64,000 bases of DNA, from positions 195,084-259,083 of the forward strand of contig JADFYJ010000001.1 in the NCBI GenBank assembly GCA_015233115.1. The letters run 5' to 3'. Positions 4,435-30,629 of this stretch are shown here, piece by piece; within the stretch, counting starts at the first letter, position 1; each line of letters begins with the position of its first letter. This DNA comes from Candidatus Omnitrophota bacterium. GTDB taxonomy: Bacteria; Omnitrophota; Gorgyraeia; Zapsychrales; Zapsychraceae. Both the position numbers and the translations under genes were made by a program. The notes beneath the pieces were generated by a model. That model was not told where the DNA came from. It did no database searches and worked only from the letters and a program-made list of their open reading frames with translations.

Positions 4435-4450
4435 TTTTTTATGAGCTAAC

Positions 4451-4481
4451 GCAAAGGGGAAGTATTTTACTTCCCCTTTGC
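4451..4481 (+). terminator. Perfect 14-bp-stem hairpin (GCAAAGGGGAAGTA-TTT-TACTTCCCCTTTGC) between the two repeat-protein genes. Possible attenuator or partial terminator.
   Basis: Inverted repeat read directly. A T-run precedes it; only a weak A/T tract follows it on the + strand. Confidence 0.35.
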
Positions 4482-4516
4482 CGCGCTAAAAAATTTAGAA
4501 GAAAGGAGGTAATGGT

Positions 4517-5392: not shown

Positions 5393-5429
5393 CGAACCTG
5401 TGGGGAAGGCAATATGATTTTTTATAGTT

Positions 5430-14495: not shown

Positions 14496-15939
14496 TTTAA
14501 AAATAAATAAATTTATTGTTTTTATTCCTGTAGTCGGAATATTTTTTCTAACTGGTTGTTCCGTTGGCCCGAATTATATTAAGCCAGATGGTCCAACTGA
14601 GTCCCGTTACACGTCTTCTTATTCGCGGCCTATTGACGCCAGATCTGCCCAACGTTTTGTTTATAATCAGGATATTCCCGCGGAATGGTGGTCTTTGTTT
14701 CATTGTGAAAAACTTGATCAAGTCATCCGGATGGCTATTGATGGTAATCCTACATTAGAAAGCGCAAAAGCGGCTTTGCGTAAAACCAAAGAAGATTTTA
14801 ACGCGCAAGTTGGCAGTGCTTATTTTCCTGAGGTCAATGCTAATCTTTCCGCTTCACGCCAAAAATTTTCAACAGCAGCCGCTGGTATTTCTAACGGAAA
14901 AGGGAGTATATTTAATCTTTATGGCGCTTCTGTGCAAGTATCTTATATGATGGATATTTGGGGTGGAGCTAAAAGAGAATTAGAATCATTACGCGCTAAA
15001 ATTGACTATGAAACTTTTCAAATGGATGCGGCATATCTGACGTTGACTTCTAATATTGTTGCTGCTGTCGGTAAAGAGGTTGCCATACGGGAGCAAATTT
15101 TGGCGGTGAATGAAATTATTACCATTCAAGAAAAACAATTACAGATATTAGAACAGCAATTAAGTTTAGGCGGCATATCCAAGCAAGACGTATTGTCGCA
15201 AAAATCCGAACTTCAACAAACCAAGGCTGCGATTCCAGCTTTGGAAAGAGAATTGGCAGTGACTCGTCATTACCTAGCAGTTTTGTGCGGTAAATTTCCC
15301 ATTGAAGAATCCACTCTGCCAGAATTTACTTTATCTGAGTTGACTCTTCCGCAAGATCTACCCGTCACATTGCCTTCATCACTGGTTCATCAACGACCGG
15401 ATATTCGTGCGGCCGAAGCCTTATTGCACTCCGCCAGTGCGGAAATTGGGGTTGCTGAAGCCAATTTATATCCACAATTAACTTTAAATAGCGGATTTGG
15501 CCCTCAATCTAACGTGATAAAAGACCTATTTAATGGAAATAATATTGTTTGGAACATTGGTGCAGGAGTATTTCAACCTGTATTTAATGGTGGAGCATTG
15601 AAAGCAAAAAAAAGAGCGGCCGTAGCTGCCTTTGACCAAGCATCTGCCCAATATCGACAAACTGTGCTTTTTGCTTTCCAAAATGTCGCGGATGTTTTAC
15701 GCTCAATTGAAACTGATGGATCAACATTTGATGCCCGTATTGAAGCATTTAATTCAGCGAAAGAAGCTTTAACATTGGCCCAAAATCAATTAGTAACTGG
15801 ATCAATAAGTAATTTAGTCTTTCAAAATAGTGAACATCTTTTCCAGCAGGCTCGTATTGGTGTGGTCCAGGCCCAGGCCGCCAGATTCACGGATACAGCC
15901 GCATTGTTTCAAGCGCTGGGAGGGGGATGGAACAAATAA
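14488..15939 (+). CDS. RND efflux outer-membrane lipoprotein (NodT/TolC family).
   Basis: Lipobox LTGC after a signal peptide. Two OEP repeats. The start at 14488 overlaps the TetR stop by 8 nt. Confidence 0.85.
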   Translation: MNNLKINKFIVFIPVVGIFFLTGCSVGPNYIKPDGPTESRYTSSYSRPIDARSAQRFVYNQDIPAEWWSLFHCEKLDQVIRMAIDGNPTLESAKAALRKTKEDFNAQVGSAYFPEVNANLSASRQKFSTAAAGISNGKGSIFNLYGASVQVSYMMDIWGGAKRELESLRAKIDYETFQMDAAYLTLTSNIVAAVGKEVAIREQILAVNEIITIQEKQLQILEQQLSLGGISKQDVLSQKSELQQTKAAIPALERELAVTRHYLAVLCGKFPIEESTLPEFTLSELTLPQDLPVTLPSSLVHQRPDIRAAEALLHSASAEIGVAEANLYPQLTLNSGFGPQSNVIKDLFNGNNIVWNIGAGVFQPVFNGGALKAKKRAAVAAFDQASAQYRQTVLFAFQNVADVLRSIETDGSTFDARIEAFNSAKEALTLAQNQLVTGSISNLVFQNSEHLFQQARIGVVQAQAARFTDTAALFQALGGGWNK

Positions 15940-15951
15940 GGAGATTTTATT

Positions 15952-17082
15952 ATGTTTAAACGAATGCTTATCATGTTAATTGTTGTCGGGTTTATTTTTG
16001 GCGGGATTTTTGGTTATAAAACTTTTATGGGTTCCATGATGAAAAAATATATGTCCAGCCAAAAAATGCCTCCAGTAACGGTTTCCGCCATAAAAGCGGA
16101 AATGCATCCATGGCAGCCAAAAATTAAATCTATTGGGAATCTGCGTGCAGTTCAAGGTGTGGATGTTACAACAGAAATTCCGGGCATCATCACCCAAATT
16201 AATTTTAAATCAGGAGATGATGTTAAAGTTGATCAAATTCTCGCCCAATTAAATGCGGACACAGATATCGCCCAATTGCATGCTCTTGAAGCAGCGGCAA
16301 ATTTAGCGCAAACTGCTTATGAACGGGATAAAAAGCAACTTGAGGCTCAAGCTGTCAGCCAAGCTGTGGTTGATGCGGACGCAGCTGAATTTAAAAGCCG
16401 CAGTGCTTTAGTCGCGCAACAAACAGCTTTGATTGGTAAAAAAACGATTAAAGCTCCATTTTCAGGTAAACTCGGGATTAGTGCCATTAATATAGGCCAA
16501 TATTTAAATCCTGGTGAAAAGATAGTCACGTTACAATTGCTGGACTCTATCTACGTCGATTTCTACCTTCCACAACAAAATCTCGCCCAAATGGCCATAG
16601 GTCAAAATGTCAGCATCACAACGGATACTTATCCGGGACGCACCTTTGCTGGAACTATTAACGCGATCAATCCTAAAGTGGAAACTGATTCCCGCAATTT
16701 TTTAGTGGAAGCCATCATTGACAATCTTAAACATGAATTAACTCCAGGAATGTTTGTTTCAATAGAAGTACCTGCAGGCAGTGAAGGACATTTTTTAACA
16801 GTTCCCCAAACTGCGGTGACTTATAATCCTTTCGGTGAAACAATTTTTATTATTCAAGAAACCGAAAAAGATAAAGACGGAAAAACAAAAATGACTGTTA
16901 AACAAATTTTTGTTACAGCAGGAGAAACCCGCGGAGACCAAGTCGCAATCTTAAAAGGCTTGAATGCAGGAGATATGGTAGTGACGAGTGGACAACTTAA
17001 ATTAAGAAATGGAAGTGAAGTAGTTATTAATAATCAGGTACAACCGTCCAATGAAGCAGCTCCAATGCCAATTGACGAATAA
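15952..17082 (+). CDS. RND efflux periplasmic adaptor (membrane fusion protein, HlyD/AcrA family).
   Basis: N-terminal TM anchor plus coiled-coil, lipoyl and beta-barrel segments. Sits between the OMF and RND genes. Confidence 0.85.
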   Translation: MFKRMLIMLIVVGFIFGGIFGYKTFMGSMMKKYMSSQKMPPVTVSAIKAEMHPWQPKIKSIGNLRAVQGVDVTTEIPGIITQINFKSGDDVKVDQILAQLNADTDIAQLHALEAAANLAQTAYERDKKQLEAQAVSQAVVDADAAEFKSRSALVAQQTALIGKKTIKAPFSGKLGISAINIGQYLNPGEKIVTLQLLDSIYVDFYLPQQNLAQMAIGQNVSITTDTYPGRTFAGTINAINPKVETDSRNFLVEAIIDNLKHELTPGMFVSIEVPAGSEGHFLTVPQTAVTYNPFGETIFIIQETEKDKDGKTKMTVKQIFVTAGETRGDQVAILKGLNAGDMVVTSGQLKLRNGSEVVINNQVQPSNEAAPMPIDE

Positions 17083-17097
17083 TAGAGAAATAATTTT

Positions 17098-20000
17098 ATG
17101 AACTTTACTGATATTTTCATCAAACGACCCGTCCTGGCAACTGTGTTAAGTTTATTTATTCTAGTTTTAGGTATCCGCTCGGTTAGTTTACTGGGAGTGC
17201 GTGAATATCCTAAAACTCAAAACGCGGTGGTCAGCGTAACTACGGTTTATACCGGTGCGGACCCTGCTTTAGTATCAGGCTTTATTACAACGCCCCTTGA
17301 AAATTCTATTGCTCAAGCAGATGGGATTGATTATTTAACCTCATCCAGCTCGTCAAATGTCAGTTTAATTAAAGCCAACCTTCGCTTAAATTATGATTCC
17401 AACAAAGCTTTGACCGAGATCAACACCAAAGTCAACGCTGTATTAAATCAATTACCTAAAGATGCGCAACAGCCCACAATAACTGTAGAGATTGGTGAAA
17501 CTGTTGATTCCATGTACATTGGATTTTATAGCAAAGATTTGCCAACAAATAAACTTTCCGACTATTTAATCCGTGTCGTACAACCCAAACTACAAACTGT
17601 TCCTGGGGTACAAACAGCGGAGATTTTGGGCAAACGGCAATTTGCCATGCGGGCATGGCTTGACCCAGTCAAAATGGCTGGGCATCAAGTAACGGCACTC
17701 GATATCAGTAATGCGCTCGCTGCCAATGATTTTATTTCTGCGGTCGGCAGTACAAAAGGACAAATGGTTAGTGTTGATTTGATAGCGTCAACCGGACTTC
17801 ACACCATTGATGAATTTAAAAATTTAGTTATTAAAAATGTAAATGGTGCTATTGTTCGTTTAAATGATGTTAGTAAAGTGACATTAGGATCTGATAACTA
17901 TGATATTTCAGTGTCATTTGATGGAGTTAATGCGGTTTTTATTGGTATTAAAGTTGCCCCGACCGCCAATTTATTAACGGTTATTGATGAGGTGCGTAAA
18001 ACTTTTCCTACGATTCAGGCTCAGCTTCCATCAGGATTAGAAGGACGTATTGTTTATGACGCGACCAAATATATAAACAGCTCAATCCATGAAGTGATTA
18101 AAACACTGGTAGAATCACTTTTGATTGTAACCTTGGTGATCTTTCTATTTTTAGGTTCTTTTCGATCAGTTCTTATTCCAGTCATTGCAATGCCACTATC
18201 CTTGATTGGTACTTTTTTTATGATGCTGATTCTTGGATATACGATCAATTTGCTGACCCTTTTAGCCCTGGTGCTTTCAATCGGCTTAGTCGTTGATGAT
18301 GCCATTATTATTGTTGAAAATATCCACCGGCATATTGAAGAAGGATTGCCGCCTTTAAAAGCCGCGTTAAAAGGTGCGGCAGAGTTGGCAGGACCGATCA
18401 TCGCTATCTCTGTCGTTCTGGTCGCTGTTTACATCCCCATTGGATTTATGGGAGGGCTGACTGGGGCACTTTTTACGGAATTCGCGTATACACTCGCAGG
18501 AGCCGTGGCCATTTCCGCACTTATTGCTTTGACCTTGTCCCCAATGATGTGCTCAATATTTTTAAAGTCTCACGATAAAAACGCACGGCATTCATTCATT
18601 GATTTTGTGGATGAACAATTTAATCAACTACGGAATATATATGAAAAATTTTTGCAAGACGTTTTAAATTATTTACCCGTGATTGCCATATTCGCTATTA
18701 TTATTTTGTTTAGCAATTATTTTTTGTATACCAGTGCTAAAAAAGAACTCGCACCTCAAGAAGATCAAGGTTTCCTGTTAGCTTTTCATACTGGTGCTCC
18801 AACAGCGTCTCTAGACCAAACGCTTTTATTTTCAAAACAAATTCATGATACATTAGCGGCTATTCCTGAAATGGATCATATTTTTCAGTTCGAAGGCATT
18901 TACGGACTCAATTCAGGTATTGCCGGAATGGTTTTAAAACCATGGGAAGAACGCAAACGGCATTCGGACATTATTCAACAAGAAACACAAATGAAATTGG
19001 GCCATATTGCCGGTGTCAACGCGGTAGTATTTCCCCCGCCTCCGCTTCCCGGTGGAGGGGAAGGGCTTCCTCTTCAATTTGTCATTGGAACCACAGATTC
19101 AGCGCAACAACTAGACAAAGTCGCCCAAACTTTTATTCAAAAAGCCTATATGAGCGGTCAGTTTGTTTATCTCGATTCTGATCTTAAAATCGATAAACCA
19201 CAAACAGAAATTCAAATTGACCGGGACAAAGCGGCTCAGCTCGGGTTATCCATGCGTGATATCGGCGGATCTTTAGGTTATATGCTAGGTGGAGGTTATA
19301 TTAATTATTTTAGCCTAGCCGGGCGTTCTTACAAAGTTATTCCCCAGGTTATGCAAAGCGAACGTCTTAACGCTGCGCAGTTAAGAGATTATTATATTAA
19401 TACCCCGCAGGGTGCTTTAATTTCTTTATCAACAATTGCAAAATTAAAAAATACGGTTGTACCTGAAACAATTAATCATTTTCAACAATTAAATTCCGCG
19501 ACTATTTCTGGCGTGCCTAATCCAAATTTCACTTTGGGACAAGCTTTGGAAAAAATGCAATCTCTGGCTAAAGAAGTTTTACCGCAAGGGTATAGCATTG
19601 ATTATGCCGGTCAATCCCGTCAATATGTTAAAGAATCAAGCGCGCTCTTGATAACTTTCTTTTTTGCCTTGATTATTATTTTCCTAGCACTAGCAGGATT
19701 ATTTGAGAGTTTTCGCGATCCATTAATTGTTCTTATTAGCGTGCCTATGTCTATTTGCGGAGCGATGATCTTTATTAGTCTAGGCATAGGAGGGGCGAGC
19801 TTAAATATTTTCACCCAAGTAGGCCTGGTGACGTTAATCGGTTTAATTAGTAAACATGGTATCTTAATTGTACAATTTGCCAATGATCTCCAACGAGAAG
19901 GTAAATCTAAATTTAATGCTATCCTTATGGCGAGCGGTATTCGATTAAGACCAATTTTAATGACCACGGCAGCTATGGTGTTGGGAGTTGTTCCGCTTGT

Positions 20001-20142
20001 GTTCGCCTCAGGTGCTGGCGCAGCTGGCCGTTTTAATATGGGTTTAGTCATTATGTCAGGAATCGCGATTGGCACACTATTCACACTTTTTGTAGTTCCT
20101 GCTATGTACATGCTATTAGCGGCAGATCATACCAAAAAATAA
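17098..20142 (+). CDS. RND efflux permease, AcrB/HAE1-type.
   Basis: 1014 aa with 12 TM helices and two large periplasmic loops. Conserved VVDDAIIIVENI motif. Confidence 0.9.
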   Translation: MNFTDIFIKRPVLATVLSLFILVLGIRSVSLLGVREYPKTQNAVVSVTTVYTGADPALVSGFITTPLENSIAQADGIDYLTSSSSSNVSLIKANLRLNYDSNKALTEINTKVNAVLNQLPKDAQQPTITVEIGETVDSMYIGFYSKDLPTNKLSDYLIRVVQPKLQTVPGVQTAEILGKRQFAMRAWLDPVKMAGHQVTALDISNALAANDFISAVGSTKGQMVSVDLIASTGLHTIDEFKNLVIKNVNGAIVRLNDVSKVTLGSDNYDISVSFDGVNAVFIGIKVAPTANLLTVIDEVRKTFPTIQAQLPSGLEGRIVYDATKYINSSIHEVIKTLVESLLIVTLVIFLFLGSFRSVLIPVIAMPLSLIGTFFMMLILGYTINLLTLLALVLSIGLVVDDAIIIVENIHRHIEEGLPPLKAALKGAAELAGPIIAISVVLVAVYIPIGFMGGLTGALFTEFAYTLAGAVAISALIALTLSPMMCSIFLKSHDKNARHSFIDFVDEQFNQLRNIYEKFLQDVLNYLPVIAIFAIIILFSNYFLYTSAKKELAPQEDQGFLLAFHTGAPTASLDQTLLFSKQIHDTLAAIPEMDHIFQFEGIYGLNSGIAGMVLKPWEERKRHSDIIQQETQMKLGHIAGVNAVVFPPPPLPGGGEGLPLQFVIGTTDSAQQLDKVAQTFIQKAYMSGQFVYLDSDLKIDKPQTEIQIDRDKAAQLGLSMRDIGGSLGYMLGGGYINYFSLAGRSYKVIPQVMQSERLNAAQLRDYYINTPQGALISLSTIAKLKNTVVPETINHFQQLNSATISGVPNPNFTLGQALEKMQSLAKEVLPQGYSIDYAGQSRQYVKESSALLITFFFALIIIFLALAGLFESFRDPLIVLISVPMSICGAMIFISLGIGGASLNIFTQVGLVTLIGLISKHGILIVQFANDLQREGKSKFNAILMASGIRLRPILMTTAAMVLGVVPLVFASGAGAAGRFNMGLVIMSGIAIGTLFTLFVVPAMYMLLAADHTKK

Positions 20143-20293: not shown

Positions 20294-20737
20294 ATGAAGG
20301 GTTCAAAATTATTTTTAACCAGTTTATTAATTTCTTGCTCCGTATTAGTATTAGCTTATACGCAAAAAGCTCAAGCGCAGACACCATCACCGGAACAATC
20401 TGGAACAGGCACCACAGCCCCTGCGGTACCTGTGGCTCCGGATCTAAAAGGTGATATTAAAAATGAAGCAAAAGAAATTCAAGGTGATAAAGCTAAAATA
20501 GTTGAAGAAAGCGAAGCTATTAAAGCTGACCGCCTAGCTTTAAAAGATGCTAAAGCAACGGGTGATAAAGAACAAATTAAAAGGGCCAGCGCTCAGCTAA
20601 GAAAAGATCAACGTAAAGAACGCGCGGCTAAAGGTGAGTTAAGCACAGATAAAAAGAATCACCACAAAGAGGGAAAATATCCTCGCAAACATAAAAAAGC
20701 TGCTGCGCAGATAACAACAGATCAAGCCGCGAAATAG
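20294..20737 (+). CDS. Small exported Lys/Glu-rich protein.
   Basis: GAGGAGG RBS. Signal peptide ending AQAQ. Highly charged helical remainder. Confidence 0.5.
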   Translation: MKGSKLFLTSLLISCSVLVLAYTQKAQAQTPSPEQSGTGTTAPAVPVAPDLKGDIKNEAKEIQGDKAKIVEESEAIKADRLALKDAKATGDKEQIKRASAQLRKDQRKERAAKGELSTDKKNHHKEGKYPRKHKKAAAQITTDQAAK

Positions 20738-20756: not shown

Positions 20757-20795
20757 AAAGCCTGTCTTTCGAAAGGGAGGCAGGCTTCTTTCATT
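20757..20795 (+). terminator. Probable intrinsic terminator: imperfect GC hairpin followed by a T-rich tract.
   Basis: AGCCTGTCTTTCGAAAGGGAGGCAGGCT followed by TCTTTCATT. Confidence 0.35.
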
Positions 20796-20832: not shown

Positions 20833-21726
20833 TTGATATTTATGCCTGCAATAATTAATCTAAATCCTAAATATATATTTGCCACAAAAAAATATACTGA
20901 GAGATCTAAGTTTACGGAACTTTCTTGGGAAGGAACCAAGCCGACTGCTTGTATTTTAATTCACGGCATGACCGGCACCCCGCATGAAATGAAGTTTCTT
21001 GGGAATTTTTTAAGTAAAAAAGGCTATCCTGTCATCTGCCCGCGTTTAAAAAATCATGGAGCTCCGATTTCTGTTTTAAAATATACCAAATGGCAAGAAT
21101 TTTATCAATCTGCCCGGGAAGCGGTCCGACAAGCTCAAAAAAAATATCAGTCCATTTTTGTAGGCGGCTTATCAATGGGCGCGTTATTGGCACTGCTTTT
21201 GGCGGATGAATTTCCTAATTTTATTTCTGGGATTACCTGCCTTTCACCAACTTTATTTTACGATGGATGGAACACGCCAAAATCAAAATTTTTATTACCT
21301 TTAGCTTATGTGACGCCCTTAAAATATATAAGTTATTTCAAAGAAGACCCGCCTTATGGTATTAAAAATGAAGCGATCCGTAAAATTGTTCACCGCTATT
21401 ATAGTCGTGCTAAATTAAGTGATCTTTCCGGTGTAGAACAATATGGGTATCCATTTTTTCCGGTGACTTTGTTAGAACAATTGCAACTATTGGTAAAACA
21501 TTTAATTCCAAAATTAAAAAACATCACAATGCCGATTCAATTAATTCAAGCGGAACAAGATGACATGACCAGCGTCAAAAACTCGCAATTTATTTATGAC
21601 CGGGTTGGCTCATCTATAAAAGAAATGGTGCTGTTAAAAAATTCCTATCATGTGATTACTGCTGATCAAGAGCGTGATACTGTCGGGGAAAATATGGAAC
21701 AATTTTTTACCCGCATTTCGAGGTGA
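20833..21726 (+). CDS. Alpha/beta-hydrolase fold esterase/lipase.
   Basis: Nucleophile elbow GGLSMGA (GxSxG); HGMTG oxyanion region; about 300 aa. Confidence 0.7.
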   Translation: MIFMPAIINLNPKYIFATKKYTERSKFTELSWEGTKPTACILIHGMTGTPHEMKFLGNFLSKKGYPVICPRLKNHGAPISVLKYTKWQEFYQSAREAVRQAQKKYQSIFVGGLSMGALLALLLADEFPNFISGITCLSPTLFYDGWNTPKSKFLLPLAYVTPLKYISYFKEDPPYGIKNEAIRKIVHRYYSRAKLSDLSGVEQYGYPFFPVTLLEQLQLLVKHLIPKLKNITMPIQLIQAEQDDMTSVKNSQFIYDRVGSSIKEMVLLKNSYHVITADQERDTVGENMEQFFTRISR

Positions 21727-22391
21727 GTTTGAAAAATATAAAGCCCAAATATAAAGTTTATTTTGATTTTGATAATACCATTACCTCCTATGATATTTTA
21801 GATGAGGTCATTAAGCGGTTTGCTATCAATTCTGAATGGAAAATTTGGGAAAAAAAATGGGCTGAAGGAAAAATCGGTTCTAAAGAATGTCTCACCCAAC
21901 AATTAAAATCATTGCGGGCTAGCCGGATGGACCTTATGGCTTATTTACATACCATAAAAGTTGATCCATACTTTAAAAAAATTTTAATTTGGCTAAAAGA
22001 TAAACGAATACCATATACCATTGTCAGCGACAGTTTTGCGTTATTGATTAAAACGATATTAAGCAATAACGAAATTCAGGATGTGAAAATCATTTGTAAT
22101 GGTTTGAAAATTGTTGAGGATCGATTCATTCCTGTATTCCCGCATGTCCATCAATGCCGGAATAAGTGCGGAAATTGTAAAAAAAGCCATCTTTTGCTTG
22201 ATCATCCCGCTCGTCACCAACGGATCTATATCGGTGACGGCCGTTCAGACATTTGCCCGGCTGAAAACGCGGATATTGTTTTTGCCAAAGGGACTTTACG
22301 TAACCATTTTAGTAAAAAAAGAAAAACTCACATTCCATTTGATAATCTGGGTGAGGTGTATCGACACTTAAAGGAGGCTAAACTTGAATAA
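21723..22391 (+). CDS. HAD-superfamily phosphatase, MtnX-like subfamily.
   Basis: Motif I DFDNTIT, a Cys-rich insert (CRNKCGNCKKSH) and GDGRSD motif IV, as in 2-hydroxy-3-keto-5-methylthiopentenyl-1-phosphate phosphatase-like proteins. Confidence 0.6.
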   Translation: MSLKNIKPKYKVYFDFDNTITSYDILDEVIKRFAINSEWKIWEKKWAEGKIGSKECLTQQLKSLRASRMDLMAYLHTIKVDPYFKKILIWLKDKRIPYTIVSDSFALLIKTILSNNEIQDVKIICNGLKIVEDRFIPVFPHVHQCRNKCGNCKKSHLLLDHPARHQRIYIGDGRSDICPAENADIVFAKGTLRNHFSKKRKTHIPFDNLGEVYRHLKEAKLE

Positions 22392-23799
22392 CAAAAATGC
22401 AGCCACTATCAACACCAATGCTTCATTAAATCGTGAAGAGCTTTTAGCTTTAGAAGCCACGTATTGTTCGTGGGGGGATACAGTTCATTATGCCAAAAAT
22501 CCTAATATTTTTAAACGAAGTGAAGGGATCTTTCTTTATGACGATGAAGATACGGAATTTCTTGATCTGCAAATGTGGTATTCCGCGGGAAATTTTGGCT
22601 ATAAAAATCAACGGATCAATGATTCTCTTAAACGTCAAATTGATACCTTGCCACAATTAGCCTGCCAGTATTTGCATAAAGAAAAAATTCTATTAGCTGC
22701 CAATTTATCCCGACGGATGGAGCGGACTTGGGAAACTAAAGGTCGCGTTCATTTTAACGTGGGCGGTTCCGCGGCGATTGAAGACTCCATGAAAGTCATT
22801 CGTAATCATACCGGAAAAAATTTGGTTTTCGCTTTTATGGGAGGATACCACGGACGCACGCTTGGCGCCACATCCATTACCTCAAGTTACCGCTACCGTG
22901 AACGCTATGGCCATTTTTCCGACCGGGCCGTATTTATCCCTTACCCTTATTGTTTCCGTTGCCCTTATGATAAAAAACGCGATCATTGCGATATGCATTG
23001 TTTAAAGCAATTTGACCGCCTGTTTGAAACAGAATACCACACGGTTTGTAACCCCAAAACCCGCAATTGTGAATGTGCCGCTTTTTATGTAGAAGCCATT
23101 CAAGGCACGGGAGGATATATTATACCGCCGCGTGATTATTTTGTAGGCCTAAAAGAAATTCTTGACCGAAACAATGTCATGATGGTCGATGATGAAATAC
23201 AAATGGGATTTTTTAGGACTGGAAAATTTTGGGCCATCGAACATTTCAATGTTATTCCTGACGTGGTGGTTTTTGGTAAAGCCATGACCAACGGGCTGAA
23301 TCCATTATCCGGAATATGGGCAAAAGAAAAATTAATTTCACCGGCTGTTTTTCCGGCCGGATCAACCCACGCCACTTTTTCCTCAAATTCATTGGGAACA
23401 ACAGTGGGCTTAGAGGTCATGAAACTTATAGAAGAATCAGATTTCGCTACCCAAATTCCCAAAAAAGGTGAATATTTTATATCCCGTTTTAAACAATTAC
23501 AAAAACGTTATCCTCAGATCGGCAATGTGGATGGTTTAGGTTTAGCGTTAAGTATAGAAATGTGCCAAAAAGACGGCTACACGCCCAACCGTGAATTAAC
23601 GGACGCCATGATGAATATAGGACTCAGTGGCCAATTAACAGCCGGAGGCAAGAAGCGCGGTCTTATTCTTGATGTGGGAGGCTATTACAAAAATATTTTT
23701 ACACTAGCGCCATCATTTTATATTGAGGAACGTGAGATTGATTTAGCCATTGAGCTTTTTGAAGAAACATTGAAAAAAGGCATTCAGGAAACGGCTTAA
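22384..23799 (+). CDS. PLP-dependent class III aminotransferase.
   Basis: VDDEIQMGFFRTGKFWA...VVFGKAMTNG carries the PLP-lysine motif of the class III fold. Long N-terminal extension. Confidence 0.8.
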   Translation: MNNKNAATINTNASLNREELLALEATYCSWGDTVHYAKNPNIFKRSEGIFLYDDEDTEFLDLQMWYSAGNFGYKNQRINDSLKRQIDTLPQLACQYLHKEKILLAANLSRRMERTWETKGRVHFNVGGSAAIEDSMKVIRNHTGKNLVFAFMGGYHGRTLGATSITSSYRYRERYGHFSDRAVFIPYPYCFRCPYDKKRDHCDMHCLKQFDRLFETEYHTVCNPKTRNCECAAFYVEAIQGTGGYIIPPRDYFVGLKEILDRNNVMMVDDEIQMGFFRTGKFWAIEHFNVIPDVVVFGKAMTNGLNPLSGIWAKEKLISPAVFPAGSTHATFSSNSLGTTVGLEVMKLIEESDFATQIPKKGEYFISRFKQLQKRYPQIGNVDGLGLALSIEMCQKDGYTPNRELTDAMMNIGLSGQLTAGGKKRGLILDVGGYYKNIFTLAPSFYIEEREIDLAIELFEETLKKGIQETA

Positions 23800-23806
23800 A
23801 GGGATT

Positions 23807-24955
23807 ATGCAAGGATCCCCTTTAACAGCTTCCATTTATCGTTCCGTTGATGAAATTTCCGTCGACGCATGGGGCAGAATTTTTCCTTCGGTCGCGGAAA
23901 ATTACTTTTTTTACAAAGTAATCGAAAAAACTTTTCCGAAAGAATATAAATTTTATTATCTGGCAATCTATCAAGATAATAACATCGTTTGTCTAGTTCC
24001 CGCTTTTGTCACTGAATTTGCGCTTGATACCACAATAAAGGGGCCTTTAAAGTATTTTACCCAAAAAATCCGCAAAATTTTTCCACATCTATTCACTATT
24101 AAAGTTTTTATCTGCGGCAATCCTTTATCCGCAGGGAAAATGGGCGTAGTCCAACACAATCAGTCTCAAATTGCTCACATGTTAGAGCAAACGATAACGG
24201 CGATATCTCAACAGGAGAAAATTAATATTTGCGCCTTTAAAGACTTTCATCAGACATATACCTCATTTTTAGATCATCTGCTAGCCAGCCGATTTCATAA
24301 AATACCTAGTTTTCCTTCTGTAGAACTTAAAATTAACTTTAAATCTTTTGATGAATATCTTTCAACCCTTAGTAAATCGACTCGCAAAAGCCTTAAAAAA
24401 AAATTCAAAGAAATCGATGATCAGAAGGTTCTAAAAGTTGAAGTGGCGAATAACCTGGGAGATCTACTCGATGAGGCTTACATCCTTTACTTAAACACTC
24501 TTAAAAAAAGTGAAATTCAATTTGAGATTCTCCCGAAATCATTTTTTAAAAATATTGCGGAAAACATGCCGAACGCGGCAAAATTTTTCCTTTGGAAGCT
24601 TAATGGCAAATTAGTGGCTTTTGATCTTTGTCTCCTGCACGACAATCACTTAGTCGATGAATATATTGGTTTGGACTATGATGTGGCGTATCAATACCAT
24701 CTCTATTTTGATTCGTACCGCGTCATTATAAAATGGTGCATTGATCAGGGCATCCTGAATTATGAAGCGGGGGCTTTAAACTATGAACCTAAAAAACGCC
24801 TGGATTTTACATTTAATTTGCAATATATCTATGTCAAACATCGAAACCCTATTATCAATATTTTCATTAAAATTTTAGGAATCATGCTTAAACCGGAAAA
24901 TTTTGATCCAATTTTAAGATCTATATATTTAGATTCCGCAAAGATCAAAAAATAA
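23807..24955 (+). CDS. FemAB/BioF2-like (GNAT-fold) acyl- or aminoacyl-transferase family protein.
   Basis: SFDEYLSTLSKSTRKSLKKKFKEI resembles the conserved central motif of Acetyltransf_6/FemAB-like proteins. About 380 aa. Confidence 0.5.
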   Translation: MQGSPLTASIYRSVDEISVDAWGRIFPSVAENYFFYKVIEKTFPKEYKFYYLAIYQDNNIVCLVPAFVTEFALDTTIKGPLKYFTQKIRKIFPHLFTIKVFICGNPLSAGKMGVVQHNQSQIAHMLEQTITAISQQEKINICAFKDFHQTYTSFLDHLLASRFHKIPSFPSVELKINFKSFDEYLSTLSKSTRKSLKKKFKEIDDQKVLKVEVANNLGDLLDEAYILYLNTLKKSEIQFEILPKSFFKNIAENMPNAAKFFLWKLNGKLVAFDLCLLHDNHLVDEYIGLDYDVAYQYHLYFDSYRVIIKWCIDQGILNYEAGALNYEPKKRLDFTFNLQYIYVKHRNPIINIFIKILGIMLKPENFDPILRSIYLDSAKIKK

Positions 24956-24990: not shown

Positions 24991-25881
24991 ATGCCCATAG
25001 TTAATAAATTGACCCGAATAATTTTTTGTATAATGAGCGTGATGTTTGTTTTAAATTTTTTTAATAACAAAGTATTTGCGGAAACTCAAAATTCACCAGA
25101 AAATACCGCTTTTGAATCAGACTCGACCGTTAAATATATGCCATCACAAAAACAAAAAAATGGGTCTGGAAAAATTACTATTATCGAAGCCAATTCCCAA
25201 CAAAGCTTTGAATTTAAAATTTTTCATAGCCTCCCAGTTATTTTTTCATTTGAAACAAAATATATCGGATTGAACCAAGCGACAGATTATCATTTCCCTG
25301 GATATTTGACGGCTGCGGGGTTTGACATAGAAACAACTGTGCCGGTGTTTAATTCTGATAAAACTTTCCTGCAACTGGGAGCCAACCCATCTTTTTATTC
25401 AGATACTTGGTCTTTTACGACTGATTCATTTCGGTTGCCACTGCGGGCCATATTAATCGATCGGCCTAATACCACACTTTTTCTTGTGTCCGGCATTGCT
25501 TTTTATCCTGATTTTGAAGAGAAAATTTATCCCCTCGTTGGTTTTATTTATAAGCCTAATGAAAAGTGGGTCTTTAATATAACATCTGAAAATCCAAATA
25601 TTATTTACTCATTAAATAAAAAAAATGAATTGTTCATTGAAGCGAACGCGTATCTGGATGAAGAATTTAATACGACCAAAGACAGTGTAAAAAATACAGT
25701 TTTGGAATTTAGGGAAATTTCCTTAGGAGGAGGACTCAGACATAAATTCAATTCTTGCGCGACCACTACTTTTTCTGTAGGTCAGGTGATTAACCGGGTC
25801 ATAAAATACAAAAATTCACCGGATGTTATCAGAATTAATAATGGCCTTTATGTGGAAATGAAATTTAATATCAAAATCTAA
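24991..25881 (+). CDS. Exported hypothetical protein, possibly outer-membrane associated.
   Basis: Signal peptide ending VFA. Beta-rich alternating pattern. No motif recognised. Confidence 0.45.
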   Translation: MPIVNKLTRIIFCIMSVMFVLNFFNNKVFAETQNSPENTAFESDSTVKYMPSQKQKNGSGKITIIEANSQQSFEFKIFHSLPVIFSFETKYIGLNQATDYHFPGYLTAAGFDIETTVPVFNSDKTFLQLGANPSFYSDTWSFTTDSFRLPLRAILIDRPNTTLFLVSGIAFYPDFEEKIYPLVGFIYKPNEKWVFNITSENPNIIYSLNKKNELFIEANAYLDEEFNTTKDSVKNTVLEFREISLGGGLRHKFNSCATTTFSVGQVINRVIKYKNSPDVIRINNGLYVEMKFNIKI

Positions 25882-25911: not shown

Positions 25912-26283
25912 TTAACGGGCCACTAAATACACGCCGCATAAAATTAAAATTGTTCCCGCCACCCGGGTCCAATGCATGCGTTCTTTCAAAAAAATGTAAG
26001 ACGCGAAAAGAATTAGCACAAATTGCATGCTATCAACACACACCGCGACGCTGAGTTCAATATTGGCCAAGACCACAAACCATACTGTCCAGGAGACGGC
26101 AATACATCCAAAACCCAGCCAAACGGCAGGTATTTTTAACGCGTTAAAAATAAACCAAATTAACTCACCAAAATTACTTAACTTATAATTCTCTAAATGA
26201 TCGGCTGATTTTTTAAAACAGATCTGTTCTGCCGTAGAAAAAACACCATGAATAATAATAAGGAAAAAAATCATTAATGTCAT
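25912..26283 (-). CDS. EamA-like single-domain (4-TM) DMT-superfamily transporter subunit.
   Basis: Four hydrophobic helices with a C-terminal GxxLIxxGVxLV-type motif. The start at 26283 abuts the stop of the upstream paralogue. Confidence 0.55.
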   Translation of the reverse strand: MTLMIFFLIIIHGVFSTAEQICFKKSADHLENYKLSNFGELIWFIFNALKIPAVWLGFGCIAVSWTVWFVVLANIELSVAVCVDSMQFVLILFASYIFLKERMHWTRVAGTILILCGVYLVAR

Positions 26284-26696
26284 AGCTTTTCTACCACCAT
26301 TCGAGTTGACTGAGAAATTAAGGTGACGCCAGCAATAATACAAAGGATACCTAGCCAGCGCGTAGAGGTAATATGTTCATGTAAAAATATCATAGATAAG
26401 AACGCCACAATAACATACGTCGCGCCGCCAACAGGAAAAGCAATGCTCAGATCTATGCGTGAAAGCACAGCCATCCAAATAACAAAATTTATGATATAAA
26501 ACAGAAAACCAATCCAAAAATTGGAGGCAGTCAATAAATGAGAAGCGAAGACCCAAATATTTTGCCAACTCACATGATGAATCTGAGTCGCCACAACACC
26601 TTTTTTAAAAAATAGTTCGCCAAACGATTCTGTAACGTCTGTCATTAAAACACTAAAATAAATTTTTAAAGTCAGATGATTTTTAAGTAGTTTCAT
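26280..26696 (-). CDS. EamA-like single-domain DMT transporter subunit, paired with 25912..26283.
   Basis: Same architecture as its partner, resembling ArnE/ArnF-type heterodimeric half-transporters. Confidence 0.55.
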   Translation of the reverse strand: MKLLKNHLTLKIYFSVLMTDVTESFGELFFKKGVVATQIHHVSWQNIWVFASHLLTASNFWIGFLFYIINFVIWMAVLSRIDLSIAFPVGGATYVIVAFLSMIFLHEHITSTRWLGILCIIAGVTLISQSTRMVVEKL

Positions 26697-26821: not shown

Positions 26822-27046
26822 ATGAACAAAAATAATATTTTACGAAGTATCAATCTCATTTTAGTTTTTTCATTTTTGATTCAAGGTTTGACTATTGTTT
26901 TCATGCTGTTTGATATGAAATTTCTGAATCCCAAATTAGTGTTCGCCTGGCACAAATATAATGGCTTAGTGTTGATTGCTCTGATCCTGCTTCATGTGAC
27001 ATTAAATTTTAGTTGGATCAAAACCAATTATTTTAAACGAACTTGA
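26822..27046 (+). CDS. Small 2-TM membrane protein.
   Basis: AAAGGAGA RBS. Two hydrophobic helices. No family assignable. Confidence 0.35.
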   Translation: MNKNNILRSINLILVFSFLIQGLTIVFMLFDMKFLNPKLVFAWHKYNGLVLIALILLHVTLNFSWIKTNYFKRT

Positions 27047-27063
27047 ACCATTTAGGACCACCC

Positions 27064-29199
27064 ATGAATAAAGCGTGGATGACCAAAACACAAAAAATTA
27101 TTTCTCAAGGCCGCAGTATTTCCTTAGGTGTCACTTTAATGGAGGGCGGCGCAAACTTTGCTATTTATTCACAATATGCGAAAGATATTTTTTTACTTTT
27201 ATTCGAACCATCTCAACAAACGCCAACTGATATTATTCGGCTTGAAAAAATTGAAAATAATATCTGGCTGATTTTTGTCCAAGGTATTAAACCGGGACAA
27301 TTATATGGGTATAAAGTCCGGGGAGATTATGATCCTAAACTTGGTTTACGTTTTAATGAAAATAAACTACTGTTAGATCCATATGCCAAAGCTATCCATG
27401 GAGACTTTATAAATGTTGATAAACTTTTATTCGCTTATAACGACAAATCACCAGAACAAGATCTCTCATTTGACCACCGCGACAATTCTGCCGTCGCGCC
27501 TAAGTCAGTAATTGTCGACGATTCATTTGATTGGAACCATGACATTAAACCCGGCATTCCGATGGAAAAACTCATTATTTATGAGCTCCATCTCAAAGGA
27601 TTTACGGCTCATCCTTCTTCTAAAGTAAGGCATCCAGGAACCTATTCCGGCTTTATCGAAAAAATACCTTATTTAAAAAGTCTTGGTATAAATGCGGTCG
27701 AATTACTTCCGGTCAATCAGTTTTATAAGAGGGATGGATTAGTAAATATTGGGCTAACTGACTATTGGGGTTATAATTCTATCGGCTTTTTTGCTCCGGA
27801 AAATTCCTATGCCAGTTCACCCAAAATTGGTGGTCAAGTTCAAGAGTTTAAAACACTGGTCAAAGAACTGCATAAAGCCGGTATTGAACTCATCCTCGAT
27901 GTTGTGTTTAATCATACTGGAGAGATTGATGAATTAGGCCCAACATTATGTTTTCGCGGAATTGATAATCCTTCATATTACGCTTTAAAAGGTCCAGGCA
28001 GCCAGCCAGGACGGTTATATGTCAATGACGCTGGATGTGGGAACATGCTTAATGTTGAGCATCCAGCAACTTTGCGGTTAATCATAGACGCCCTTCGTTA
28101 CTGGTCTACGGTAATGCATGTGGACGGATTCCGTTTTGACCTAGCTACCATTTTGCCCCGCATGCATGGCCAATACTCAAAAGACTCCGCTTTTTTCGAG
28201 GCAGTCTCTCACGACCCTGCGTTAAAGAACATTAAACTCATTGCTGAGCCATGGGATTTAACAACCTATCAAATCGGAAACTTTCCCCTAAACTGGTCGG
28301 AATGGAACGGGAAATTCCGCGATACCACCCGTCGTTTTATAAAAGGAGATTGGGGCCAAGCTAAAGATTTAGCTTACCGTTTGACCGGATCAGAAGATCT
28401 TTATGGAAATGGTGGTCGTGAGCCTTATAACAGTATTAATTTCATAACCTGCCATGATGGATTTACACTTTATGACCTGTTTTCTTACAATCAGAAACAT
28501 AATGAAGCTAATGGAGAAAAAAATAAAGACGGCACAAATGATAATTTTTCCTGGAATTGCGGCGTTGAAGGTGAAACCACCGATGAAGGGATCATTCAAT
28601 TCAGAAAACAAATGGTAAAAAACGCTTTAAGTTGTTTATTAATCCCGTTGGGGACTCCCATGATCTTGGGTGGTGATGAATTCATGCGCACACAGAAAGG
28701 AAATAACAATGCCTACTGCCAAGACAATGATATTACCTGGTTTGACTGGCAATACGCGCAAAAAAATCAAGATATCACGGAATTTTTAAAAAAACTGATT
28801 GTTTTTCGTAAACGATATACGATCTTACAAAAACGCAAATTCTCTCCTGGCCAACATTTAAATTTTAATAATACGAAGGATCTAGTCTGGTTTGGTGAAA
28901 ATCTCGATCATGTTAACTTGGAGGATCCGGCGATCAAAACATTCTGCTGCCATTTAGATGGAACTAAAGAACCATTAGATTCCAAACCGTATCATTTATT
29001 TTTCATGCTCAACGCTGACCATAACTCGCACATGATTAAAATACCAAAATTTGAGAAAATTACGTGGTATCGAACACTTGACACCAGTCTGCAAAGCGGG
29101 TATGATATTTCAGAATTCGGACGAGAACAAAAAATTGATCCTGCCGATGTCTATTTAATAAATCCTCGTTGTGTGGTGGTACTGGTAGGAAAAACCTAA
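27064..29199 (+). CDS. glgX: Glycogen debranching enzyme (GH13 isoamylase-type).
   Basis: GH13 regions ELLPVNQ, LDVVFNHTGE, GFRFDLA, EPWD and FITCHDGFTL. N-terminal CBM48-like segment. The start could be the ATG at 27064 or 27079. Confidence 0.85.
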   Translation: MNKAWMTKTQKIISQGRSISLGVTLMEGGANFAIYSQYAKDIFLLLFEPSQQTPTDIIRLEKIENNIWLIFVQGIKPGQLYGYKVRGDYDPKLGLRFNENKLLLDPYAKAIHGDFINVDKLLFAYNDKSPEQDLSFDHRDNSAVAPKSVIVDDSFDWNHDIKPGIPMEKLIIYELHLKGFTAHPSSKVRHPGTYSGFIEKIPYLKSLGINAVELLPVNQFYKRDGLVNIGLTDYWGYNSIGFFAPENSYASSPKIGGQVQEFKTLVKELHKAGIELILDVVFNHTGEIDELGPTLCFRGIDNPSYYALKGPGSQPGRLYVNDAGCGNMLNVEHPATLRLIIDALRYWSTVMHVDGFRFDLATILPRMHGQYSKDSAFFEAVSHDPALKNIKLIAEPWDLTTYQIGNFPLNWSEWNGKFRDTTRRFIKGDWGQAKDLAYRLTGSEDLYGNGGREPYNSINFITCHDGFTLYDLFSYNQKHNEANGEKNKDGTNDNFSWNCGVEGETTDEGIIQFRKQMVKNALSCLLIPLGTPMILGGDEFMRTQKGNNNAYCQDNDITWFDWQYAQKNQDITEFLKKLIVFRKRYTILQKRKFSPGQHLNFNNTKDLVWFGENLDHVNLEDPAIKTFCCHLDGTKEPLDSKPYHLFFMLNADHNSHMIKIPKFEKITWYRTLDTSLQSGYDISEFGREQKIDPADVYLINPRCVVVLVGKT

Positions 29200-29314: not shown

Positions 29315-30628
29315 ATGAAATCCTTAGGAATCACCATGACCTTTAAAAAAATATTTTTCCTGACATTCTTTATTCTAATCGCGTCATCTGTCATTATCAT
29401 TTTTATTAAACTGGTTTCCGCCGAAACGATTGAATCTGTGAACAGCAGTAGTCTAAATTTAGACGACTGTTACAAGTTGGCGCTCAAACAAAGCGAAACC
29501 TTAGCCATAAACCGAGAAAAAATTATTCAAGCGGAAGCTCATTTCTTACAAGCTTTAGGAACCGCTTTACCGCAAGTATCCCTTTCCCGGACTGATACGC
29601 GACACTATTCCGATAATTCGCCTTCCTCGAATAAGAGCTTTGAACAAAAATTTATATTTACCCAGCAGCTGTTTGCGGGATTCAAAGAATTCGCAGCTAT
29701 ATCAGGAAGCCATTTGGAATCAAAACAACGCAGAAATGAACAATTGCGGGCCGAACAAATTTTATTTGAAAATGTTTCAGATGCCTTTTACCTTTTAGTA
29801 GAAACCCGTGATGATCTCAAAATTTTAAAAACTATTCATATATCTTTGAACGATCGGGTGAAAGATCTTTCAGAACGGTTTAAATTAGGTAAATCACGAA
29901 AGAGTGAAGTTGTTAATACCGAAGTTCAGCTTTATAACACAGAAGCAGATATCGAAACAGCCAAAAATCAAGAAATGATAGCTAAAGAATTATTGGAATT
30001 TTTAACCGGCCAAACAATCAGCGATATCACGGATACTCAGGTTAATTTTATCTTAAAATCAGAAACAGAATATATGAACCATGCCGCCACCCGCGCGGAT
30101 GTCAAAGCCGCTGATTACGCATGGAAAGTTAGTCAAAAACAAGTGGCCATAGCCAGAAGCGGGTTTTTCCCGACTGTTAATCTAGAAGGAGATTATTATA
30201 CTCATCGCACATCTTCGCCAGTTGACAGCGACTGGTCAACCCTGTTAACCGTTTCTGTACCAATCTTTAAAGGAACCTCAACGATGGGCAATCTTAAAGA
30301 AGCAAATTCAATCGCCAAACAATATGAGCTTTATTATAATTTAGCCTTAAGGAATGCCCTACAAGATATCCATGATGCCTATACAAATGTACAATTTTCC
30401 ATTTCCCGAAGCAATGCGCTTGCCAAGGCGCTGGAATCTGCTGAATTAGATTTTAAGTTACAAACGCAAGATTACGCGTCTAATTTAGTGAATAACCTTG
30501 ATGTGCTCACAGCTATCCAGGATCTGGCCGCTGTTAAAAGAAATTATTCCCATACCGCAGCTGAGAATAAAAGATTTTATTGGCAATTACTCGTCGCTTC
30601 TGGTGACATCAATCTAGGAAATAAATAA
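29315..30628 (+). CDS. TolC-like outer membrane efflux protein.
   Basis: Signal or TM N-terminus and two OEP repeats. Immediately followed by an RND gene. Confidence 0.8.
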   Translation: MKSLGITMTFKKIFFLTFFILIASSVIIIFIKLVSAETIESVNSSSLNLDDCYKLALKQSETLAINREKIIQAEAHFLQALGTALPQVSLSRTDTRHYSDNSPSSNKSFEQKFIFTQQLFAGFKEFAAISGSHLESKQRRNEQLRAEQILFENVSDAFYLLVETRDDLKILKTIHISLNDRVKDLSERFKLGKSRKSEVVNTEVQLYNTEADIETAKNQEMIAKELLEFLTGQTISDITDTQVNFILKSETEYMNHAATRADVKAADYAWKVSQKQVAIARSGFFPTVNLEGDYYTHRTSSPVDSDWSTLLTVSVPIFKGTSTMGNLKEANSIAKQYELYYNLALRNALQDIHDAYTNVQFSISRSNALAKALESAELDFKLQTQDYASNLVNNLDVLTAIQDLAAVKRNYSHTAAENKRFYWQLLVASGDINLGNK

Positions 30629-30629
30629 C

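Follow-up and report, generated by a model that had tools for sequence, protein, structure and literature searches.

The gene cluster

This report concerns a gene cluster in a 64,000-nucleotide (nt) stretch of DNA from a Candidatus Omnitrophota bacterium (assembly GCA_015233115.1, contig JADFYJ010000001.1, positions 195,084 to 259,083 of the forward strand). We refer to the whole stretch as the window and count positions from its first letter. The cluster begins with four open reading frames (ORFs) on the plus strand, which encode a hydrolase, a phosphatase, a pyridoxal phosphate (PLP) enzyme and a FemAB-like transferase. A gene for a DUF6268 protein follows on the same strand, and two small genes of the DMT (EamA) type lie on the opposite strand. 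The phylum Omnitrophota is uncultured and has a global distribution, and its cells are mostly ultra-small and possibly dependent on hosts. The features of the cluster are as follows (aa, amino acids).

20758 to 20787, plus strand: terminator-like hairpin, 13-bp stem followed by a T-rich tail, 3' of an upstream 147-aa gene
20833 to 21726, plus strand: alpha/beta hydrolase of the monoacylglycerol-lipase/carboxylesterase type, 297 aa (Hydrolase_4, 68.8 bits)
21723 to 22391, plus strand: HAD-IB phosphatase of the MtnX/PHOSPHO1-like subfamily, 222 aa (TIGR01489, 108.6 bits, cutoff 81.55; PF06888, 47 bits)
22384 to 23799, plus strand: class-III-fold PLP enzyme, 471 aa (Aminotran_3, PF00202, 248.8 bits, above the gathering threshold)
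23807 to 24955, plus strand: tandem-GNAT transferase of PF04339/PF13480 (COG3146), 382 aa (FemAB_like PF04339, 63.1 bits; Acetyltransf_6 PF13480, 48.5 bits)
24991 to 25881, plus strand: DUF6268 protein, 296 aa, with a signal peptide and a predicted outer-membrane beta-barrel (PF19783 is carried by its homologues)
25912 to 26343, minus strand: Eam-B, the second small four-transmembrane DMT/EamA protein (EamA, 35.1 bits; likely start ATG 26283)
26280 to 26696, minus strand: Eam-A, a small four-transmembrane DMT/EamA protein, ArnE/ArnF-like (EamA, 38.6 bits)

An earlier interpretation of this DNA, made from its letters alone (the sequence-only reading), had described four tightly packed and probably translationally coupled genes for a hydrolase, an MtnX-like phosphatase, a class III aminotransferase and a FemAB-like transferase. 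All four ORFs are present where it had placed them and with the spacing that it gave: with the longest-ORF starts, the hydrolase and phosphatase genes overlap by 4 nt, the phosphatase and PLP enzyme genes overlap by 8 nt, and the transferase gene begins after a 7-nt gap. Assignment with the Pfam and NCBIfam hidden Markov models (HMMs) agreed with the four domain calls. In the public annotation of identical proteins from the metagenome-assembled genome (MAG), the aminotransferase and the transferase likewise have 471 aa and 382 aa.

The start TTG 22384 of the PLP enzyme has a perfect AAGGAGG 7 nt upstream. Two other starts are uncertain. For the hydrolase, ATG 20842 is a likely alternative to 20833, and the phosphatase could begin either at GTG 21723 (a GTGA overlap) or at TTG 21729, which has GAGG 6 nt upstream; with the latter start, the 4-nt overlap becomes a 2-nt gap. 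The overlaps, together with the ribosome-binding-site-like AAGGAGG and GAGG motifs at the junctions, support translational coupling of the four genes, as had been supposed. The hairpin at 20758-20787 delimits the operon on its upstream side.

The functional unit extends beyond the four genes to which the sequence-only reading had limited it, and it includes both the DUF6268 gene and the opposite-strand DMT pair. The DUF6268 gene begins 36 nt after the transferase gene and is the last gene on the same strand, and the two DMT ORFs (25912-26696) are convergent with it. The likely start of Eam-B, ATG 26283, overlaps the stop of Eam-A as ATGA. In relatives, the unit also takes in an arginase-fold protein, a DegT-type aminotransferase and a two-component system.

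Conservation of the cluster

Two samples of loci were compared. For the first, one genome per species was scanned with an alignment of eight transferase sequences, which gave 80 loci with a transferase homologue, nearly all of them labelled Omnitrophota. The second sample, which is independent, consists of 80 metagenome loci anchored on the PLP enzyme, for a total of 160 loci. The loci were mapped with the window proteins by tblastn, and all of their ORFs were clustered. Loci with at least 6 kb on both sides are called well-flanked; 37 species-representative loci qualify.

The DMT pair lies directly beside the transferase gene and on the same strand in 29 of the 37 well-flanked loci, and the DMT genes are paired in 60 of the 80 genome loci. 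The hydrolase, phosphatase and PLP enzyme genes accompany the transferase and DMT genes in about one third of the well-flanked loci. All of the parts are present together in each of the seven informative close relatives, that is, those with a transferase at least 43% identical to that of the window (L001, L002, L004-L007 and L009). In the second sample, the phosphatase gene is directly upstream of the PLP enzyme gene in 67 of the 80 loci; the corresponding counts are 39 for the hydrolase, 25 for the DMT pair and 19 for the transferase, and many of the absences are contig ends. Two tight modules recur in these data, one consisting of the phosphatase and the PLP enzyme (with the hydrolase) and the other of the transferase and the DMT pair. 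Co-localisation across the 160 loci is far beyond chance. The expectation that the genes would be conserved together was therefore borne out, but the idea that the original four form one unit in relatives held only in part: the two modules recur, and both are joined in only about a third of the well-flanked loci.

When the modules are joined, their order varies. With ABH for the hydrolase/esterase, HAD for the phosphatase, AT3 for the class-III PLP enzyme, FEM for the FemAB-like transferase, Eam for a small DMT gene and ARG for the arginase-fold protein, four types of order were found: a colinear ABH-HAD-AT3-FEM-Eam-Eam; FEM-Eam-Eam convergent with AT3-HAD-ABH; AT3-ABH-HAD-FEM-Eam-Eam; and HAD-AT3-ARG followed by opposite-strand ABH and DegT genes and then FEM-Eam-Eam. 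That the linkage is kept in spite of these rearranged orders and orientations between lineages indicates selection for the linkage and not shared ancestry alone. The most complete arrangement is a colinear, overlapping eight-gene operon in L163, in which ABH, HAD, AT3, the arginase-fold gene, FEM and two Eam genes are followed by the DUF6268 gene. The DUF6268 gene is likewise terminal in L164 (FEM-Eam-Eam-DUF6268). Compared with these two loci, the cluster in the window has been rearranged: its DMT pair is inverted, and it lacks the arginase-fold gene.

These patterns bear on the possibility that the two modules share no pathway and are merely adjacent in this genome. About two thirds of the well-flanked loci hold just one module, some MAGs carry extra transferase-DMT copies without the other genes (L052 as compared with L042; L022), and conservation is much stronger in the PLP enzyme (59-79% identity across the phylum) than in the transferase (34-48% in the same comparisons). 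However, distant lineages have the two modules together in a variety of gene orders and orientations. The modules are also joined in each of the informative close relatives and in the colinear operon of L163, and an esterase-transferase fusion in L168 (see below) bridges both. We regard two independent modules as very improbable.

Two side observations belong here. Some Omnitrophota genomes have two transferase-DMT modules, only one of which lies beside the phosphatase, PLP enzyme and hydrolase genes (L022; L042 and L052 in MAG JBAZER01; L047 and L055; L030 and L076), which suggests paralogues with different acceptors. In addition, antisense ORFs inside the PLP enzyme and transferase genes (e.g., 23136-23462, minus strand) cluster across loci. 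They lie wholly within conserved coding genes, and we judged them to be by-products of strong conservation of the coding strand instead of genes.

Fusion proteins

Three kinds of fusion proteins indicate partners of the transferase. In P0003 (519 aa), residues 1-381 are 70% identical to the window transferase and are followed by a C-terminal DMT domain, an architecture that is present in many relatives. Eam-A of the window is the orthologue of the DMT domain that is fused to the transferase in close relatives (47% identity to residues 387-510 of P0003). These fusions would suggest that the transferase works at the membrane with a DMT protein. In P0354 (673 aa; L168, 4358-6379), a Hydrolase_4 esterase is fused to the transferase within a cluster that is otherwise typical (AT3-HAD-[ABH-FEM]-Eam-Eam), which would suggest that the transferase works together with the esterase.

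The third fusion, P0335 (933 aa; L167, 5176-7977), consists of a PilZ domain, an alpha-oxoamine synthase resembling serine palmitoyltransferase (SPT), BioF and Kbl, and the transferase. Its PLP domain scores 425 bits with the SPT-type model, which is under the cutoff of 640, and 237 bits with the model for alpha-hydroxyketone autoinducer synthases. The gene adjoins a FadL/TodX-type channel of the outer membrane, and histidine kinases and response regulators are numerous beside it. P0335 may be a c-di-GMP-controlled amino-lipid or signal synthase, and the fusion would suggest that in another lineage a PLP enzyme makes a lipid amine and the transferase carries out the very next step.

The FemAB-like transferase

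All 51 aligned members of the transferase family match both PF04339 and PF13480 above the gathering thresholds and match nothing else. The protein is soluble, and its AlphaFold2 model has a pLDDT of 93.5. A Foldseek search of the PDB with this model returned only aminoacyl-tRNA-dependent tandem GNATs as the 18 best matches, namely FemX, Sbb17/Sba18 and the Lys- and Ala-phosphatidylglycerol synthase domains of MprF. FemX is the top match (E 3.5e-13, TM-score 0.58-0.61), and the C-terminal domains of MprF are related to the model by fold similarity only (E about 2e-10). A basic helix, TRKSLKKKFK (T191-K200), is conserved in the transferase, with R193 and K199 invariant. A helix that binds the tRNA acceptor stem has been described for all of the aminoacyl-tRNA transferases (PMC6103681), and helix 191-200 may, by analogy, be its counterpart.

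Searches of the PDB with the transferase, both by sequence and by profile, gave nothing useful. None of the 51 members match PF02388 (FemAB) or DUF2156 (the MprF synthase domain), and the transferase scores 26.4 bits with the FemX equivalog NF047883, which has a cutoff of 500. The COG3146/PF04339 family is large, with at least 939 clusters at 50% identity at E<=1e-30 and 5315 at E<=1e-3; our literature search on PF04339, PF13480, DUF482 and COG3146 found no characterised member.

The hydrolase, the phosphatase and the PLP enzyme

The nearest solved relatives of the hydrolase are a Bacillus monoacylglycerol lipase (4lhe/3rli, E 3e-29), followed by Est30. Its HG, GLSxGA, DD and SYH motifs are kept in at least 90% of 61 orthologues and the Ser-Asp-His triad is intact; the HMM match and the triad together place it in the monoacylglycerol lipase/carboxylesterase family (Hydrolase_4). 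Neither a transmembrane segment nor a signal peptide was detected in the hydrolase.

The phosphatase motifs DFDxT, SD, K and GDGxSD (HAD motifs I-IV) are kept in at least 90% of 75 orthologues. It had been considered odd that an MtnX-like phosphatase should stand apart from methionine-salvage genes. The oddity disappears, however, when the score is examined: the protein reaches the cutoff of the broad HAD-IB subfamily model alone and falls below both MtnX equivalogs (TIGR03333, 77.4 bits as compared with 303.2; NF007103, 94.4 as compared with 292). One could still ask whether the phosphatase and the PLP enzyme are a fragment of methionine salvage or of another known amino acid pathway, since MtnX (2fea, E 7e-16) is the best solved relative of the phosphatase and the MtnX-like subfamily model is passed. 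Against this, the PLP enzyme is of class III, lacks the Arg that binds an alpha-carboxylate and reaches no named equivalog. No mtn genes are present among the annotated neighbours in the window or the recurrent neighbour clusters of the 160 loci, and the failure of both equivalogs together with this lack of mtn context effectively rules the pathway out. Phosphonate metabolism was rejected as well: weak matches to PbfA and phn_DUF6 are far below cutoff, and no phosphonate genes occur among the annotated recurrent neighbour clusters.

The PLP enzyme stands out for its strong conservation. Both the PLP-binding Lys (K299) and the Asp that contacts the pyridine nitrogen (D270) are present in all 97 orthologues, and the enzyme is probably active. 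Nevertheless, the Arg that canonically binds the substrate carboxylate is replaced by Thr440 in 96 of the 97. The nearest solved relatives are a Pyrococcus Ala/Ser racemase (9wqz), 7vno and 9wrf, which are class-III-fold racemases and an ornithine-aminotransferase-like protein. All three keep the Arg in a C-terminal NV(I/L)R..PPL motif, where the window enzyme has KNIFTLAPSF and its orthologues have KNVFT(L/I)APS. Loss of this residue suggests that the substrate or the donor is something other than a normal alpha-amino or alpha-keto acid. The enzyme reaches no NCBIfam equivalog cutoff, and, as far as its sequence indicates, it is unlikely to be an ordinary glutamate/2-oxoglutarate transaminase of the GabT, ArgD or OAT type. 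The sequence-only reading had called the enzyme long (471 aa) and its position next to a FemAB-like transferase unusual. A length of 471 aa is normal in this branch of the class III enzymes, as its nearest solved relatives have 454-483 aa, and the real oddity is the missing Arg. The enzyme also has a Cys-rich insertion (CxxC...C...C), in which C193, C202 and C206 are present in 92-93 of the 97 orthologues and C190 is also largely kept. This insertion could be a metal site.

The export proteins and the neighbours in other lineages

Hydropathy plots show about four hydrophobic segments in each of Eam-A and Eam-B. The best named models for the pair are ArnF and ArnE, although both proteins are below the equivalog cutoffs (NF002816, 37-40 bits as compared with 99; NF011625, 26-33 as compared with 92); Eam-A has 40 bits with the ArnF model. 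The DUF6268 family is small, and only ten homologues were found. The structural model of the window protein has a pLDDT of 52.8 and consists of a signal helix and about 13 long strands. Its Foldseek matches are all outer-membrane barrels, at TM-scores of only 0.2-0.37, which supports an outer-membrane barrel as a call at the level of class only.

The recurrent neighbours of the phosphatase/PLP enzyme pair in other lineages are envelope or lipid enzymes. They include a HAMP histidine kinase with an OmpR-type regulator, a DegT-type aminotransferase, an arginase-fold protein (a marginal match, 22.8 bits), a PagL-like barrel and FabF (512 bits, above cutoff). The presence of an envelope-type two-component system beside the cluster in many relatives suggests regulated remodelling of the envelope. 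A clade from soil metagenomes (L142, 4482-14559; similar in L149, L152 and L157-L159) has a more distant phosphatase/PLP enzyme pair (about 62% identity) in a cluster with a radical-SAM enzyme, an ABC-2 exporter, a GT28 protein resembling diglucosyl-diacylglycerol synthase, a NodB-type deacetylase, a PaaK/DVU_1553-type ligase and a lipid-type B12 radical-SAM enzyme.

An inner-membrane DMT exporter and an outer-membrane barrel in one operon make up a typical export route. It is therefore worth considering whether the cytosolic enzymes build an N-acyl or N-aminoacyl amine that leaves the cell through the DMT pair and the barrel. The secreted product could be a small molecule or a lipid-like one, for instance a signal, a surfactant, a siderophore-like compound or an antibiotic. 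The L167 locus fits this idea, because there the SPT/CqsA-like fusion to the transferase lies beside the FadL/TodX channel and the many kinases and regulators, and the PLP domain of the fusion fits the autoinducer synthase model noted above. A two-component system also adjoins some of the loci, and aminoacyl-tRNA-dependent tandem GNATs such as Sbb17 serve antibiotic pathways (PMC6103681). On the other hand, lipid-modifying synthases, MprF among them, are characteristically fused to a membrane translocator, and for soluble products such a fusion of biosynthetic enzyme and translocator is unusual. The cluster is also phylum-wide, the conservation of its PLP enzyme greatly exceeds what is usual in secondary metabolism, its neighbours elsewhere are membrane-lipid enzymes, and genes for nonribosomal peptide synthetases, polyketide synthases and tailoring enzymes are not recurrent. 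A secreted product is thus possible but doubtful.

The same proteins could be assembled into a modification of peptidoglycan or of an undecaprenyl-linked precursor. Here the FemX-like enzyme would add an amino acid, the racemase-like PLP enzyme would supply an unusual, perhaps D-, amino acid and the ArnE/F-like pair would flip the carrier lipid. FemX is the best structural match of the transferase, the PLP enzyme has Ala/Ser and broad-specificity amino-acid racemases as its nearest solved relatives, ArnE and ArnF flip a sugar linked to undecaprenyl phosphate and a DegT-type sugar aminotransferase is a frequent neighbour. However, the transferase has no PF02388 match and is at 26 bits with a FemX equivalog that requires 500, and mur, pbp and glycosyltransferase genes are not recurrent in the 160 loci. 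The racemase relatives keep the Arg that this PLP enzyme family has lost, and, since the amino acids on aminoacyl-tRNA are of the L form, the transferase would not be fed by a racemase. This reading would also leave the esterase, the phosphatase and the SPT-like fusion unexplained. We consider this assignment to be quite unlikely.

A part in polyamine metabolism is also possible, as suggested by the arginase-fold neighbour and the SMR-like pair. However, the DMT pair fits EamA rather than the MdtIJ type and, as noted above, the arginase match is marginal. The PADLOC anti-phage models gave no match for eight proteins. The view that the genes fit no characterised pathway has therefore stood: no NCBIfam equivalog is reached at cutoff, PADLOC is empty and the COG3146/PF04339 family is uncharacterised.

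A proposed pathway

We propose that across the Omnitrophota the cluster serves to build an amphiphile with an amine, either a lipid or a lipid-like molecule, to acylate or aminoacylate it and to move the product across the envelope. This is the best supported of the readings, and we would put its probability at roughly 0.4. The observed linkage, fusions, fold and intact catalytic motifs are its foundation, the lipid enzymes beside the phosphatase/PLP enzyme pair in other lineages also speak for it, and we infer every chemical step from fold, family and context. The HAD-IB phosphatase and the class-III PLP enzyme, as a coupled pair, would convert a phosphorylated carbonyl precursor to an amino alcohol or amine head group, with the logic of keto-phosphate to amino-phosphate to amino alcohol. 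The soluble tandem-GNAT transferase, at the inner membrane face, would then place either an aminoacyl group (from aminoacyl-tRNA, like FemX and MprF) or an acyl group (from a thioester) on the amine or lipid. Presumably the monoacylglycerol-lipase-like hydrolase supplies or removes an ester-linked acyl or aminoacyl group, as may be compared with the esterases encoded beside MprF. The ArnE/F-like four-transmembrane heterodimer would flip or export the product across the inner membrane, and the DUF6268 barrel would handle it at the outer membrane.

In a more specific form, the cluster would be a new Omnitrophota route to an amide-linked amino-lipid, either ceramide-like or aminoacylated, with an Arg-less class-III PLP enzyme and a HAD phosphatase, a FemX-fold COG3146 transferase and a four-transmembrane DMT heterodimer as the dedicated flippase. 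We offer this version only tentatively, and it is rather unlikely to hold in every part. The sequence-only reading had favoured an aminated and acylated small molecule, or a modified lipid or cell-wall component, which agrees with the direction of the evidence; taken as a whole, that reading is partly supported.

Several findings weigh against the proposed amine-bearing amphiphile. The one-module loci would mean that the two modules may also work separately. The nearest solved relatives of the PLP enzyme are amino-acid racemases, and so the enzyme may not form an amine at all. The fold similarity of the transferase to FemX and MprF is moderate (TM-scores of 0.45-0.61), and tandem GNATs that use acyl-CoA (VipF, Eis-like proteins and N-myristoyltransferase) also match its model, at lower rank, so the donor could be of either type. 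PF04339/COG3146 is without a characterised member, and an earlier functional prediction for the COG3146 family, as a pterin enzyme, was invalidated (PMC3223725). In view of the failed ArnE/ArnF cutoffs, the DMT pair could be an ordinary small-molecule exporter; no ArnC/ArnT-type glycosyltransferase is recurrent in the cluster; and the structural model of the DUF6268 protein is of low confidence.

Comparison with known systems

One close parallel is with MprF, the aminoacyl-phosphatidylglycerol synthases. In both systems a cytosolic tandem GNAT, with FemX as its closest structural relative, is the catalytic part and has a physical link to a membrane translocator. Both also have a neighbouring gene for an esterase or hydrolase, and the cluster often lies next to a two-component system. 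The operon partners of MprF include the hydrolases AhyD, VirJ and PesT, and there is regulation by GraSR (PMC6103681). However, MprF has an N-terminal domain of 6-14 transmembrane segments, whereas the cluster has a four-transmembrane DMT (EamA) heterodimer that is either C-terminal or separate. The phosphatase and the class-III PLP enzyme of the cluster have no counterpart in MprF, and the synthase domains do not match at the level of sequence.

Like the Arn system (PmrHFIJKLM), which adds aminoarabinose to lipid A, the cluster has a translationally coupled pair of small four-transmembrane DMT proteins; among named models, ArnF and ArnE fit the pair best. Arn also has amine-forming PLP chemistry followed by N-acylation, as is inferred for the cluster. 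Relatives of the cluster hold a DegT/ArnB-type aminotransferase, a deacylase-type hydrolase (of the NodB or arginase fold) and a PmrAB-like two-component system. Unlike Arn, no homologue of ArnA, ArnC or ArnT is present in the window or among the recurrent neighbours, and the PLP enzyme of the window is of class III and not DegT. The cluster thus appears to work like MprF with its operon hydrolase and like Arn with ArnE/F, and yet it is a member of neither.

The remaining parallels are with parts of the cluster. FemX and the other FemABX proteins, Sbb17/Sba18, VlmA and PacB are the best structural matches of the transferase (E 3.5e-13 to 2.5e-10), and several of them have an amine acceptor. 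They differ from it in family (PF04339/PF13480 for the cluster, with no PF02388), and the cluster has no peptidoglycan or antibiotic-cluster context. In bacterial ceramide synthesis (Spt, bCerS/CC_1154/YghO and CerR), a PLP enzyme makes a lipid amine and an N-acyltransferase follows, which resembles the proposed order of events and the SPT-like fusion in a relative of the transferase. However, the window has a class-III enzyme instead of Spt and is without CerR or a dedicated acyl carrier protein. Homology of the transferase to bCerS was rejected, with an hhalign probability of 2% against YghO of E. coli BL21, a protein without a Pfam match; YghO is the equivalent of CC_1154 (PMC9386255).

The phosphatase/PLP enzyme pair recalls a different group of systems. 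Aminotransferase-phosphatase pairs such as SerC/SerB, HisC/HisB and NtdA/NtdB make amino alcohols or amino sugars. As in those pairs, a PLP enzyme and a HAD phosphatase are coupled in the cluster, which would be expected for the conversion of a keto-phosphate to an amino alcohol by way of an amino-phosphate. However, the fold class of the PLP enzyme differs, the canonical Arg is absent and no equivalog is matched.

Flanking genes

The cluster is flanked by two efflux systems. On the upstream side is a complete OEP-MFP-RND efflux operon (14380-20142), and between it and the cluster is a gene (20294-20737) for a 147-aa secreted protein that is rich in Lys, Glu and Ala, has a signal peptide and has no Pfam or NCBIfam match. 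Downstream, a 74-aa ORF (26823-27046) with two hydrophobic segments has AAGGAGA upstream. A GH13/CBM48 isoamylase-like gene (27043-29199) follows, and the end of the 74-aa ORF overlaps its TTG start. The second RND system (29315-33731) lies 3' of the isoamylase-like gene; it comprises an OEP and an RND pump, with no membrane-fusion protein next to them. A membrane methyltransferase of the PEMT/ICMT type (phospholipid methyltransferase family; 34031-34687) is encoded 7 kb downstream of the cluster; it is not among the conserved neighbours. The start of the window (433-6119) encodes a DUF5677 protein, a 915-aa protein without a Pfam match and a protein that consists of a stand-alone C39 peptidase domain.

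Concluding remarks

This gene cluster is among the most conserved lineage-specific gene sets of the Omnitrophota, a phylum for which no literature surfaced in our search on either envelope chemistry or this cluster. The three independent fusions provide concrete enzyme pairings, namely transferase with DMT protein, esterase with transferase and SPT-like enzyme with transferase. Even should the proposed model prove wrong, the locus has clear limits and lends itself to heterologous expression. If the model is true, the cluster would give the COG3146/PF04339 family its first assigned function, and it would represent both a new lipid class and a new synthase-plus-flippase architecture. In its more specific form, the model would also mean that the Omnitrophota arrived independently in evolution at what MprF, Arn and Spt/bCerS do in other bacteria.

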